From Escherichia coli (GTDB lineage Bacteria; Pseudomonadota; Gammaproteobacteria; Enterobacterales; Enterobacteriaceae): 19,253 bases of DNA. The notes under the pieces are model-generated. The model was not told the DNA's origin, searched no databases, and was given only the letters and a program-made list of their open reading frames with translations. How positions within the stretch are numbered: the stretch's first letter is position 1; each line of letters starts with the position of its first letter. The position numbers were made by a program, and so were the translations under genes. Where the stretch lies: NCBI RefSeq assembly GCF_003334335.1, contig NZ_QOWQ01000055.1, one strand, 5' to 3'. Below are positions 6,050 through 8,478 of the stretch, piece by piece.

Positions 6050-6609
6050 CCTTCTGCTCCTCTACCTTCTACCAGCAGAACCTGAAGCTGTTTATCGATA
6101 ATGACCTGAGTCTGGAGGATGGCGATAACAACGTCATTATTCGCGAAGATATTATTGCGCAACTGGAAACTGCGCAGAAAATCCGTGACATCTTCTTCAG
6201 CAAACAGAACGGTCTGGGAACATCCTTTGCCGTGGAAACGGTATCGCTTTCAGGCAATAAACGCCGCAGTGTACTGAACCTTGACGGTCAGTTAGTCGAT
6301 TACAGCCAGGGCCGTAACTATACCGCCCATCTGGTCTGGCCTAACAACATGCGCGAAGGCAACGAAAGTAAGCTGACGCTCATCGGCACCAGCGGCAACG
6401 CGCCGCGCAGTATCAGCTTCAGCGGGCCGTGGGCGCAGTTCCGCCTGTTCGGGGCCGGACAACTGACCGGAGTACAGGATGGCAACTTTACCGTGCGCTT
6501 TAGCGTGGACGGTGGCGCGATGACCTACCGTGTGCATACCGACACGGAAGATAACCCGTTCAGCGGTGGGTTGTTCAGCCAGTTTGGTCTGTCAGACACA
6601 CTGTACTGA
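6050..6609 (+). pseudogene. tssM: 3'-terminal fragment of a type VI secretion membrane-complex gene (TssM/IcmF-like C-terminal region), lacking its 5' part
   Basis: Plus-strand frame open from the rhs junction to TGA at 6607-6609 (...FYQQNLKLFIDNDLSLEDGDNNVIIREDIIAQLETAQKIRDIFFSK...FSQFGLSDTLY*) with no possible start. Its stop is 10 nt before the start of the next gene. Recognised as TssM-like from memory and from the tssM-tssA-hcp gene order. Confidence 0.55.
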
Positions 6610-6619
6610 GGAGGCAGGG

Positions 6620-7972
6620 ATGAATAGTAACGTACTGACACAAACTATCGTTACCGGCAGTGACCCGCGCGGGCTGCCGGAATTCAGCGCCATCCGCGAG
6701 GAAATAAACAAAGCCAGCCACCCGTCACAGCCTGAGCTGAACTGGAAACTGGTGGAGTCGCTGGCGCTGGCGATTTTTAAAGCCAACGGTGTGGATTTAC
6801 ACACCGCCACCTACTATACGCTTGCCCGGACACGGACACAGGGACTGGCGGGATTCTGCGAAGGTGCGGAACTGCTGGCGGCAATGGTAAGCCACGACTG
6901 GGATAAGTTCTGGCCGCAGGGCGGCCCGGCGCGTACTGAAATGCTGGACTGGTTTAACTCCCGAACCGGCAATATTCTGCGTCAGCAAATCTCCTTTGCG
7001 GAATCCGACCTACCACTGATCTACCGCACAGAGCGGGCATTGCAGCTTATCTGCGATAAGCTCCAGCAGGTGGAACTGAAGCGCGTTCCGCGCGTGGAGA
7101 ATCTGCTCTATTTTATGCAGAACACGCGTAAACGGCTTGAACCCCAGCTGAAGAGTAACACTGAGAACGCCGCACAGACCACGGTCAGAACGCTGATTTA
7201 TGCCCCGGAAACACAGGCATCTTCCACACCAGAAGCGGTAGTGCCTCCCCTGCCCGGCCTGCCTGAGATGAAAGTGGAAGTGCGCAGTCTGACAGAGAAT
7301 CCCCCACAGGCCAGTGTGATAAAGCAAGGCAGTACGGTAAGAGGGTTTATCGCAGGGATCGCCTGTTCAGTGGCTGTCGCCTCAGCATTGTGGTGGTGGC
7401 AGGTCTATCCGGTGCAGCAGCAACTGTTACAGGTTAACGACACCGCTCAGGGCGCAGCAACGGTGTGGATGGCCTCACCTGAACTCGAAAACTATGAGCG
7501 CAGGCTGCAACAACTTCTTGATACCTCCCCGGTACAGCCGCTGGAAACCGGGATGCAGATGATGCGTGTTGCCGACAGTCGCTGGCCGGAAAGCCTGCAA
7601 CAGCAACAGGCCTCGACACAATGGAATGAGGCACTCAAAACCCGCGCACAGAGTAGCCCGCAGTTGCGTGGCTGGTTGCAGACCCGCCAGGACTTACATG
7701 CTTTTGCAGATCTAGTGATGCAGCGCGAGAAAGAGGGACTAACCCTTTCCTATATCAAAAATGTCATCTGGCAGGCGGAGCGGGGACTGGGGCAGGAAAC
7801 ACCCGTTGAGTCTCTGTTGACGCAGTACCATGATGCCCGTGCGCAGAAGCAGAATACAGATGCGCTGGAAAAACAAATTAATGAGCGACTCGAAGGCGTG
7901 TTAAGCCGCTGGCTGCTGCTGAAGAATAACGTCATGCCAGAGGCGGCAACCGGTACCACGGCCGAAAAATAA
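6620..7972 (+). CDS. TssA-family ImpA_N-domain protein with a central hydrophobic segment (TagA/VasL-like T6SS accessory protein)
   Basis: ATG at 6620 preceded by GAGGAGG; N-terminus SDPRGLPEFSAIREEINK...WKLVESLALAIFKANGVDLHTATYY is the classic ImpA_N pattern; hydrophobic stretch GFIAGIACSVAVASALWWWQVY mid-protein. The track's longer ORF from 6530 is rejected. Confidence 0.7.
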   Translation: MNSNVLTQTIVTGSDPRGLPEFSAIREEINKASHPSQPELNWKLVESLALAIFKANGVDLHTATYYTLARTRTQGLAGFCEGAELLAAMVSHDWDKFWPQGGPARTEMLDWFNSRTGNILRQQISFAESDLPLIYRTERALQLICDKLQQVELKRVPRVENLLYFMQNTRKRLEPQLKSNTENAAQTTVRTLIYAPETQASSTPEAVVPPLPGLPEMKVEVRSLTENPPQASVIKQGSTVRGFIAGIACSVAVASALWWWQVYPVQQQLLQVNDTAQGAATVWMASPELENYERRLQQLLDTSPVQPLETGMQMMRVADSRWPESLQQQQASTQWNEALKTRAQSSPQLRGWLQTRQDLHAFADLVMQREKEGLTLSYIKNVIWQAERGLGQETPVESLLTQYHDARAQKQNTDALEKQINERLEGVLSRWLLLKNNVMPEAATGTTAEK

Positions 7973-7995
7973 TTATTTAATTAAAGGAGATTATC

Positions 7996-8478
7996 ATGGC
8001 AAATATAAGTTATTTATCTTTGAGTGGAGAGACACAAGGGCTAATTTCAGCAGGTTGCTCAACGCTTGATTCTGTCGGAAACAAAGCGCAGCCAGAACAT
8101 AAAGATCAGATCATGGTTTATGCGTTAATGCATTCCATCTCAAGAAGTCAAAATGTCAATCATCATGAATTAATTATCACCAAACCGGTTGATAAATCCT
8201 CACCATTGCTGGCAAAAGCACTTAGTGACAATGAAAAAATGGCAATATGTGAATTTATACTCTACCGAACCAGTAAAGCGGGTATTTACCAGCCTTATTA
8301 TAAAATAAATCTGTCAAAAGCCCGAATATCAAGTATTGATTTTGTCACACCGCATGCTGTCCTGGAAAAAGAACTGGAACCACAGGAGAGAATTGCCTTT
8401 ATTTATGAAGATATTTCCTGGGAGCATACGTTAGCCGGTACGAATGCAATGAGTAAATGGCAGGATCGTGTACAGTAA
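7996..8478 (+). CDS. hcp: Hcp, type VI secretion tube protein (160 aa)
   Basis: AAGGAG RBS then ATG; Hcp-family size and motifs (…ITKPVDKSSPLLAKAL…, …IDFVTPHAVLEKELEPQERIAFIYEDISWEH…). Confidence 0.85.
   Translation: MANISYLSLSGETQGLISAGCSTLDSVGNKAQPEHKDQIMVYALMHSISRSQNVNHHELIITKPVDKSSPLLAKALSDNEKMAICEFILYRTSKAGIYQPYYKINLSKARISSIDFVTPHAVLEKELEPQERIAFIYEDISWEHTLAGTNAMSKWQDRVQ

Follow-up and report, generated by a model that had tools for sequence, protein, structure and literature searches.

A probable 3' remnant of the aspV-linked T6SS-2 cluster in an Escherichia coli chromosome

Genes between rhs and aspV

The window, the whole stretch of 19,253 nucleotides analysed here, belongs to the E. 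coli chromosome with the order yafV–aspV–dkgB. The following features are found at the locus.

1969..6062, minus strand: rhs (RHS core protein) pseudogene, 5'-truncated and frameshifted; Rhs/YD repeats in the translation
6060..6065, no strand: rhs/tssM deletion junction, break at 6062/6063; BLAST against the NZ_CP062908.1 cluster and junction comparison
6063..6609, plus strand: tssM (icmF) 3' fragment, last 181 codons and stop; TIGR03348 match
6620..7972, plus strand: tagA (vasL), accessory T6SS gene, 450 amino acids; PF06812, PF12486 and hydropathy
7996..8478, plus strand: hcp (tssD), tube protein, 160 amino acids; full-length TIGR03344 match
8522..9436, plus strand: tme-family gene, predicted membrane-disrupting T6SS effector, 304 amino acids; accession WP_000908066.1
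9446..9925, plus strand: ykfM, 159 amino acids, three predicted transmembrane helices; identity to K-12 and a Salmonella homologue
10026..10051, plus strand: terminator-like hairpin with T-rich tail; consensus scan
10062..10847, minus strand: yafT lipoprotein gene, island flank; annotated in K-12 and in two relative loci (L001, L007)
11175..11251, minus strand: tRNA-Asp gene (aspV), chromosomal landmark of the island; ARAGORN, Rfam and K-12 annotation

A preliminary description had read positions 6050-8478 as a T6SS remnant: a tssM tail coupled to a TagA- or TssA-like gene and followed by an intact hcp. Domain searches and the comparison with intact clusters agree on the remnant. The proposed module of tssM tail, tagA and hcp stands, and its extent is larger. 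It also includes tme (8522-9436) and ykfM (9446-9925), and its left edge is the rhs/tssM junction.

The frame upstream of tagA is TssM. Its 185-amino-acid translation matches TIGR03348 at positions 986-1167 of 1168 (E = 2e-48) and scores 165 bits against a cut-off of 388. The start is lost, as first described, with the junction at 6062/6063 as the left edge; of the 1144 codons, the last 181 are left, and they specify the periplasmic IcmF_C part. Full-length TssM has N-terminal transmembrane segments, an IcmF-related part and IcmF_C. The fragment lacks a start codon, a signal segment and transmembrane segments; PGAP, the genome annotation pipeline of NCBI, names it 'IcmF C-terminal domain-containing protein, missing N-terminus'. 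TssM reduced to this C-terminal fragment would be stranded in the cytoplasm. The right-hand alignment of 13.2 kb, including the tssM tail, has 99.96% identity to a cluster with full-length tssM (L002).

The frame ends with ...SDTLY-TGA at 6607-6609. GAGGAGG at 6608-6614 precedes the tagA ATG at 6620, and both the stop and the start were placed correctly from the outset. The claim that coupling is preserved is true of the sequence: the 10-nt spacing is the same in clusters with full-length tssM. For the process it probably does not hold. The first possible start in the tssM tail is a GTG within the frame at position 6232, and tagA is therefore unlikely to receive ribosomes from upstream. The gene has a strong Shine-Dalgarno sequence of its own.

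Hcp and its ribosome-binding site (AAGGAG, 7984-7989) are intact, in agreement with the preliminary description. The protein is identical to WP_001284199.1 and scores 203 bits with TIGR03344 (cut-off 58.9, residues 1-157). Hcp structures in the PDB (3he1, 6a2v, 5mxn) cover residues 1-158. A search of 5426 complete E. coli genomes found the gene in 2551. In an intact cluster, Hcp would build the tube and probably carry the Tme effector encoded downstream.

The 450-amino-acid product of tagA has two Pfam domains, ImpA_N (PF06812) at residues 12-113 (E = 3e-19) and VasL (PF12486) at residues 292-434 (model positions 1-146 of 147, E = 5e-23); Pfam gave no match to VasJ (PF16989). It stays below the NCBIfam cut-offs for TssA, with 84 bits against 230 for TIGR03362 and 40 against 161 for TIGR03363, and both matches are confined to the N-terminal part. 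A core TssA (class A) was considered and rejected on the absence of VasJ and these scores, and the initial assignment to the TagA/VasL type rather than to canonical TssA is confirmed. A hydrophobic segment is located at about residues 239-262, within GFIAGIACSVAVASALWWWQVY. Its Kyte-Doolittle 19-residue mean is 1.69, and it is the only stretch with a mean above 1.6 (begin at residues 239-242). The segment, first described as atypical for canonical TssA, is not atypical here: a hydrophobic or transmembrane segment after ImpA_N is the defining feature of TagA, the class B of ImpA_N proteins, whose definition and function have been described (PMC6745524). TagA of EAEC and of V. cholerae likewise have ImpA_N, a hydrophobic segment and a C-terminal VasL (Santin 2018; Schneider 2019, PMC6745524), a likeness in architecture.

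The window tagA is nucleotide-identical to the gene for WP_001087741.1, a 'VasL domain-containing protein'. More than 100 homologues in Enterobacteriaceae have 73-100% identity, and nearly all have both domains. In relatives with full-length tssM, tagA is located directly 3' of tssM, and a separate TssA with ImpA_N and VasJ is encoded upstream (tssA–tssM–vasL in L002). The TssA of the Salmonella enterica locus (L010) carries PF06812 and PF16989. By analogy to studied systems, the membrane-anchored TagA of an intact cluster may capture TssA at the distal sheath end and stop or hold sheath polymerisation. Unlike in these systems, the partners of TagA in the window, that is TssA, the sheath and a full-length TssM, are deleted.

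The parent cluster and the deletion

The parent cluster is a V. cholerae-like vas-type T6SS between yafV and the aspV tRNA gene. Relatives carrying the whole cluster have two arms: rhs–vgrG–hcp in one direction and tssB…tssA–tssM–tagA–hcp–tme–ykfM toward aspV. The cluster of NZ_CP062908.1 was the reference for gene order; it has internal stops in vgrG and tssC and is a map of order only. The Salmonella enterica locus repeats the order tssH…tssM–tagA–hcp–tme–DUF1240–yafT. The flanks of the window, ISAs1/rhs on one side and yafT–aspV–dnaQ on the other, place it at the site of the aspV-linked cluster, and the window is colinear with two relative loci (L002, L003) except for the deletion. E. coli T6SS-2 (subtype i1; 'T6SS/1' of ECC-1470; T6SS2 of EHEC and APEC) has the same site, yafV…yafT–aspV, and the same gene order. 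The hcp at 7996..8478 closes the series of structural genes in the main T6SS-2 operon and corresponds by position to 'hcp2A' of the APEC nomenclature (operon naming in PMC5874247). From its sequence, the hairpin at 10026..10051 probably terminates transcription of the tssB…ykfM unit. An Rfam scan detected no RNA elements within 6050-8478.

In comparison to NZ_CP062908.1, about 21.2 kb are absent. The rhs side lost the rhs 5' end, vgrG and hcp. The main operon lost tssB, tssC, tssE, tssF, tssG, tagH, tssJ, tssK, tssL, tssH, vasI, tssA and 84% of tssM. At the junction, codon 46 of the minus-strand rhs is fused to codon 964 of tssM, with a microhomology of 2-3 bp (TA/TAC). The rhs pseudogene forms the left side. 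It lacks its promoter and the first 45 codons, which encode a PAAR-like N-terminus; intact rhs alleles (L004, L005) run 135 nt beyond its end. PGAP names the identical stretch 'RHS element core protein, missing N-terminus'. A 7-bp deletion near 4022 breaks the rhs reading frame and was found in the window alone. A single illegitimate, microhomology-based deletion joined the two codons. It took both divergent promoter regions and left a promoterless string ΔtssM–tagA–hcp–tme–ykfM.

Of 5426 complete E. coli genomes, six have exactly this junction, NZ_CP160468.1 and NZ_AP027595.1 among them. About 99 further genomes have a sister junction with the same rhs endpoint and 757 bp more tssM. Among the attrition isoforms of T6SS-2, the breakpoint in the window is a rare sub-variant of this commoner form. 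Two other explanations of the junction were discarded. Filler DNA had been considered for 6046-6062, where 17-20 nt had no counterpart in the rhs first used as reference; these are absent from the reference cluster and represent the continuation of a different rhs N-terminal allele. An IS-mediated adjacent deletion as the source of two junction types with one rhs endpoint was dismissed, as neither junction has an IS.

The flanks are rich in repeats (rhs, ISAs1, IS1414), and this together with the private indel near 4022 could suggest an assembly or sequencing artefact of one record. Against this, the same junction occurs with 100% identity in the six independently assembled complete genomes, which differ in host and country and rule out an assembly artefact, and the sister junction recurs in the further genomes. 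The probability of an artefact is negligible.

We consider it very probable that the region 6050-8478 is the surviving 3' end of the aspV-linked E. coli T6SS-2 (subtype i1) cluster, left by a recent deletion of about 21.2 kb, with tagA and hcp as non-functional passengers.

Expression and residual function

A functional T6SS-2 (i1) is defined by 13 core genes, tssA-M. In the window, hcp (tssD) is the only complete one and tssM is a fragment; tssA, tssB, tssC, tssE, tssF, tssG, tssH, tssJ, tssK, tssL and vgrG are absent from the locus (11 of 13). A T6SS from this locus would be inoperable. Because TssM is a C-terminal fragment and 11 of 13 core genes are missing at the locus, tagA and hcp are probably non-functional passengers.

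Consensus scans of the plus strand from 5400 to 8468 found no σ70 consensus, the best relaxed matches having 8 of 12 positions, which is weak negative evidence. Together with the missing promoters, the scans suggest that the locus is silent. Any expression would depend on read-through or a weak internal promoter. The GC content of about 57% drops to 31-39% from about position 7900 onward. H-NS is reported to repress T6SS-2 genes (PMC5874247), and it probably silences the AT-rich part from hcp to ykfM in the same way.

Loci with full-length tssM have tagA and hcp alleles that match those of the window at 100% identity, and the protein accessions of the window recur at such loci. The intactness of the genes therefore probably reflects a recent deletion and not selection; there was no time for decay. 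In strain PEC1009, which has the same junction (L012), tagA, hcp and ykfM are nucleotide-identical to the window, and tme differs by one synonymous base.

The intact reading frames and ribosome-binding sites of tagA, hcp, tme and ykfM would also suit a working auxiliary module, with an internal or junction-made promoter and export of Hcp, with Tme, by another T6SS such as T6SS-1. Orphan hcp–effector–immunity modules exist; a Rahnella bruchi homologue adjoins hcp outside any cluster. The position of the Tme effector downstream of hcp fits a cargo carried by Hcp. The intactness, however, is accounted for by the recency of the deletion, and there is no promoter-like site upstream. The genes tagA, hcp and tme are freely destroyed in other lineages (IS1 in vasL, truncations, the K-12 form). 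E. coli Hcp proteins form separate genetic types with different effectors (PMC5874247), and TagA requires its cognate TssA, which is deleted here. A working module is thus improbable.

Tme, YkfM and the decay of the locus

Tme/Tmi are membrane-disrupting effector–immunity pairs (Fridman et al. 2020, PMC7046647). The 304-amino-acid protein of the window is identical to WP_000908066.1, which is listed with a Tme domain at residues 122-277 (E = 2.6e-36; PMC7046647, supplementary file 7). It has no Pfam or NCBIfam match. The Tme motif of D209-x-x-K212, a transmembrane stretch and D260 is invariant among seven homologues, and hydrophobicity peaks at residues 234-262. The order of DxxK, transmembrane helix and D is shared with the pairs of Fridman et al. 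(2020); the E. coli member is a predicted one.

The same study lists ykfM as the gene downstream of Tme and this Hcp as the one upstream (PMC7046647). The window ykfM is 100% identical to ykfM of K-12. YkfM has no direct Pfam or NCBIfam match and stays under the Pfam DUF1240 threshold. It shares 51% identity (E = 2e-51) with the protein encoded at this place in Salmonella, which has PF06836 (DUF1240). DUF1240 proteins are encoded downstream of Tme in Salmonella and Rahnella; YkfM is DUF1240-like only by its Salmonella homologue. Family membership and gene position make YkfM the predicted Tmi (DUF1240-like) immunity protein for Tme.

This is an already described kind of gene-cluster decay and no new system. 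Attrition of the locus has been published (Leimbach et al. 2017, PMC5422975): numerous mutational isoforms are on record, together with small versions that do not function, and impA and an hcp-like gene are widely retained. These genes carry PGAP annotations in hundreds of genomes already. Other independent deletion forms are tssF'–'tssM, tssH/rhs, and vasL genes cut short or interrupted by IS1. The extreme form is K-12, where only yafU'–ykfM is left. Window positions 9080-12682, with the K-12 locus yafU'–ykfM–yafT, match MG1655 at 100% identity. The K-12 locus derives from the same island by a further deletion, whose ends correspond to positions 312 and 9080 of the window. There the tssM tail, tagA, hcp and two thirds of tme are gone too; the window retains all of them intact. 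The K-12 pseudogene yafU is the 3' third of tme.

A remaining role is plausible for ykfM alone, which may act as an orphan immunity gene against Tme from T6SS-2-positive E. coli. The deletion gradient from the intact cluster over the form with 757 bp more tssM and the window to K-12 might tentatively be read as selection that keeps ykfM as an orphan Tmi. K-12 has an intact ykfM beside a fragment of the effector gene, as expected for orphan immunity genes, and immunity to Tme has been proposed for the ykfM family. Both observations speak against the rather unlikely alternative that the whole string, including ykfM, is a neutral relic whose graded retention toward aspV only shows where deletions from the rhs/ISAs1 side stopped. 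Such a relic would agree with the nesting of the deletion forms from that side toward aspV. At 80% coverage or more, ykfM is found in 2998 genomes and hcp in 2551, a modest excess in a redundant collection with many K-12 derivatives. The gene itself is sometimes broken, by an internal stop in L002 and by truncation in H215.

The first reading of the region was correct, but the island is an ordinary pseudogenised one and means little beyond bookkeeping: surveys of virulence genes should not count 'impA/vasL' and 'hcp' near aspV as a T6SS. If selection on ykfM holds, tagA, hcp and tme would be short-lived passengers. The uncharacterised ykfM and the pseudogene yafU of K-12 would then gain a concrete function and origin. 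In a lost T6SS-2 Tme/Tmi pair, ykfM can be read as the gene for immunity and yafU as the pseudogene of the effector.

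Remnant of the T6SS-2 island at aspV

The window originates from the Escherichia coli chromosome and carries what a recent deletion has left of the E. coli T6SS-2 island: genes for TagA and Hcp and a Tme/Tmi pair, without the machine. This supports the core of the preliminary description, a T6SS remnant, and all its coordinates proved correct when rechecked on the sequence. A 4-kb query around the feature found matches in 3850 of 5426 complete E. coli genomes, 105 of them with near-full cover at 100% identity.

Features of the window and gene orders of related loci
6620-7972: tagA (ImpA_N/VasL gene)
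7996-8478: hcp
8522-9436: tme, putative effector gene
9446-9925: ykfM, putative immunity gene
10026-10051: terminator-like hairpin after ykfM
11175-11251: tRNA-Asp (aspV), predicted by ARAGORN
FORC 064 (L001), annotated order: yafV – ISAs1 – small ORF – rhs (pseudogene) – 'IcmF C-terminal domain protein' (pseudogene) – 'VasL domain-containing protein' – 'Hcp family T6SS effector' – hypothetical – ykfM – lipoprotein (yafT) – tRNA-Asp – dnaQ – rnhA … dkgB
Res13-Lact-EB12-05, one strand: ISAs1 – small ORFs – rhs – vgrG – hcp
Res13-Lact-EB12-05, divergent strand: tssB – small ORF – tssC – tssE – tssF – tssG – tagH – tssJ – tssK – tssL – tssH – vasI – tssA – tssM – vasL – hcp – hypothetical – ykfM, then yafT, aspV

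Strain Res13-Lact-EB12-05 (L002, L003) has the whole cluster with full-length tssM. In its copy, tme and ykfM are disrupted and internal stops interrupt vgrG and tssC; it therefore served as a map of gene order and not as proof of a working system. The order tssH–vasI–tssA(ImpA_N+VasJ)–tssM–(ImpA_N+VasL)–hcp is the same on a Salmonella enterica contig. Such a vas-type cluster, similar to that of V. cholerae, is known as T6SS-2 or subtype i1 in the E. coli literature (PMC5422975, PMC6730261).

In BLAST against the Res13-Lact-EB12-05 cluster, window 75-6045 aligned to rhs and ISAs1, and window 6063-19253 to the tssM 3′ end and everything downstream with 99.96% identity. Rather than filler, the 17 nt between the blocks are how another rhs N-terminal allele normally continues; this allele is intact at two other loci (L004, L005). 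The intact rhs runs 135 nt (45 codons) past the breakpoint and has a PAAR-like N-terminus, MGGGKPAARQGD…. The junction reads …CTGCTCCTCTA|CCTTCTACCAG…, with a microhomology of 2-3 bp. About 21.2 kb are missing, including the cluster's two divergent promoter regions. The junction is real, since exactly the same one occurs, 100% identical, in six complete genomes (sources: pig, wild bird, human, vegetable and chicken).

Some 99 further genomes of the FORC 064 type share the identical rhs endpoint and keep 757 bp more of tssM (FORC 064 locus 13060-13823 versus window 6060-6065). This extra segment has TAC at both ends. The window flanks are closest to this type, differing by a single mismatch over 13.2 kb, and the simplest reading is therefore that the window junction probably arose by a second, nested microhomology deletion.

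The rhs pseudogene on the minus strand has a 7-bp deletion (GTTCACC) at ~4022 relative to FORC 064 and strain PEC1009 (NZ_CP160468.1), which splits the frame into 1969-3951 and 3984-6041. This reflects either continued decay or a sequencing indel present only in this record. Window 1282-1402 (minus strand), which lies between ISAs1 and the small ORF downstream of rhs, gave a full-length Rfam match to RF01999 (group-II-D1D4-2; 81.8 bits, gathering score 36). No ORF for an intron-encoded protein is near this match, which is thus presumably a group II intron fragment. Window 1-77 does not match the ISAs1 end of FORC 064 or K-12. In PEC1009, with which the window is colinear, the ISAs1 end contains an inserted IS1414 (IS256-like) element, so the window-type lineage shares this IS-in-IS insertion. 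PEC1009, which has the rhs/tssM junction of the window, carries an integrase-bearing island at the aspV position (14499-18400; phage integrase, inovirus Gp2-family protein, YfjI), whereas dnaQ directly follows aspV in the window.

The tssM tail, TagA and Hcp

The frame upstream of tagA was described as a TssM tail, and the equivalog model TIGR03348 agrees: model positions 986-1167 of 1168 matched with E = 2e-48, at 165 bits versus a cut-off of 388 for the full-length protein. The plus-strand frame ends with …FSGGLFSQFGLSDTLY at a TGA stop (6607-6609). The window retains 181 of 1144 tssM codons, without a start codon until an internal GTG at 6232. A product of the tail would lack the membrane-targeting segments anyway. 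The GAGGAGG at 6608-6614 precedes the ATG at 6620 as described, and tagA has its own ribosome-binding site, GGAGG, five nucleotides from the ATG. The proposed translational coupling is kept as sequence, with identical spacing where tssM is full-length, but is moot if the tssM tail is not translated.

The 450-aa product of tagA matches Pfam ImpA_N (residues 12-113, 3e-19) and VasL (residues 292-434, 5e-23). Its only hydrophobic stretch lies at residues ~239-262 (Kyte-Doolittle mean 1.69). Class B ImpA_N proteins (TagA) are defined by ImpA_N and a hydrophobic or transmembrane region, joined in many members by a C-terminal VasL; class A TssA, by contrast, consists of ImpA_N and VasJ (Schneider et al. 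2019, PMC6745524). All three TagA features are present in the window protein, and the Pfam search gave no match to VasJ. TssA identity was rejected on the missing VasJ and because NCBIfam TssA models scored far under cut-off, with an N-terminal match only. A separate TssA is encoded in the E. coli (L002) and Salmonella enterica clusters with full-length tssM. Over 100 homologues with 73-100% identity, mostly ~446-451 aa, occur in Salmonella, Citrobacter, Enterobacter and other Enterobacteriaceae, nearly all with ImpA_N and VasL. The domain search and the hydrophobic segment thus support a TagA/VasL-type protein, unlike canonical TssA. The segment, first described as atypical for canonical TssA, is what characterises this known class of accessory protein.

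Upstream, the tagA frame stays open as far as a GTG at 6530 and overlaps the tssM tail (window 6530-7972). Public gene calls include 'TagA' proteins of 573-682 aa that have extra N-terminal sequence or are chimeras, with pieces of TssF, IcmF or TssK attached at other deletion junctions; they are artefacts of annotating the various remnants.

The hcp gene is intact, as first described, with 160 codons for amino acids and AAGGAG six nucleotides upstream of the ATG. Its product matches TIGR03344 over the full length (203 bits, cut-off 58.9) and solved Hcp structures. In the nomenclature for avian pathogenic E. coli (APEC), the main operon is vipA2…hcp2A and the divergent unit hcp2B–vgrG2 (PMC5874247). 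By gene order, the window hcp would correspond to hcp2A.

The Tme–YkfM module

The 304-aa product of tme had no Pfam or NCBIfam match and is identical to WP_000908066.1, listed as a Tme (type VI membrane-disrupting effector) domain protein in a supplementary table of Fridman et al. 2020 (PMC7046647). The table places the Hcp WP_001284199.1 43 bp upstream and YkfM WP_001236645.1, with three transmembrane helices, 9 bp downstream; both are the window's proteins. The Tme motif is DxxK, a transmembrane helix and then D (Fridman et al. 2020), and D209, K212 and D260 are invariant in an alignment of seven homologues. The Salmonella and Rahnella homologues adjoin hcp and are followed by DUF1240 proteins, a family proposed as Tmi immunity (PMC7046647). 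YkfM had no Pfam or NCBIfam match itself and shares 51% identity with the Salmonella DUF1240 protein. By sequence, 8522-9925 would encode the catalogued Tme effector and a Tmi-like, DUF1240-like immunity protein, extending the module beyond the feature first reported.

The GC content changes sharply within 7800-10000, from ~57% in tssM/tagA to 31-39% from hcp onward. This drop suggests a separately acquired cargo module, hcp–tme–ykfM, and fits a likely H-NS target. T6SS-2 genes are reportedly repressed by H-NS (PMC5874247).

Expression, decay and the K-12 form

No σ70-like site with at least 9 of 12 matches was found on the plus strand in 5400-8468; the best site of a relaxed scan had only 8. 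Upstream on this strand lie 4 kb of antisense rhs.

The tagA, hcp and ykfM genes are nucleotide-identical to those of PEC1009, and tme is one synonymous base apart. Loci with full-length tssM carry the same protein accessions, and the remnant lineage has 100.0% identity over 4 kb in 25 of 25 genomes among the matches listed. Because of this identity, the deletion appears too young for decay to be expected, and intactness does not imply selection. In other lineages, tagA, hcp and tme are readily destroyed. Retention is somewhat wider for ykfM than for hcp (2998 versus 2551 genomes), and ykfM is intact in K-12; an orphan-immunity role would be compatible with this. Against that stand the redundancy of the collection and the genomes in which ykfM is broken.

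Deletion forms at the locus are many and independent. They include tssF′ joined to the final 78 nt of tssM, tssH joined to a piece of rhs, breakpoints within vasL and an IS1 insertion in vasL; the protein database holds chimeric ORF calls with TssF, IcmF, TssK or Hcp joined to TagA. Leimbach et al. (PMC5422975) described small versions that are probably non-functional and found impA and the hcp-like gene kept throughout their strain panel. In K-12, only the pseudogene yafU, the 3′ third (339 bp) of the effector gene after hcp, and a ykfM 100% identical to that of the window survive. Window 9080-12682 shows 100% identity to K-12 MG1655, whose deletion endpoints are window 312 and 9080 (yafF′/yafU′) with a 5 bp overlap. 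K-12 therefore derived from an island that was intact or resembled that of the window, through a deletion running from ISAs1 into tme.

The remnant is already covered by PGAP, NCBI's genome annotation pipeline, and by the literature. The sole, mildly new angle is that K-12 ykfM may be the immunity gene, and yafU the effector pseudogene, of a lost T6SS-2.
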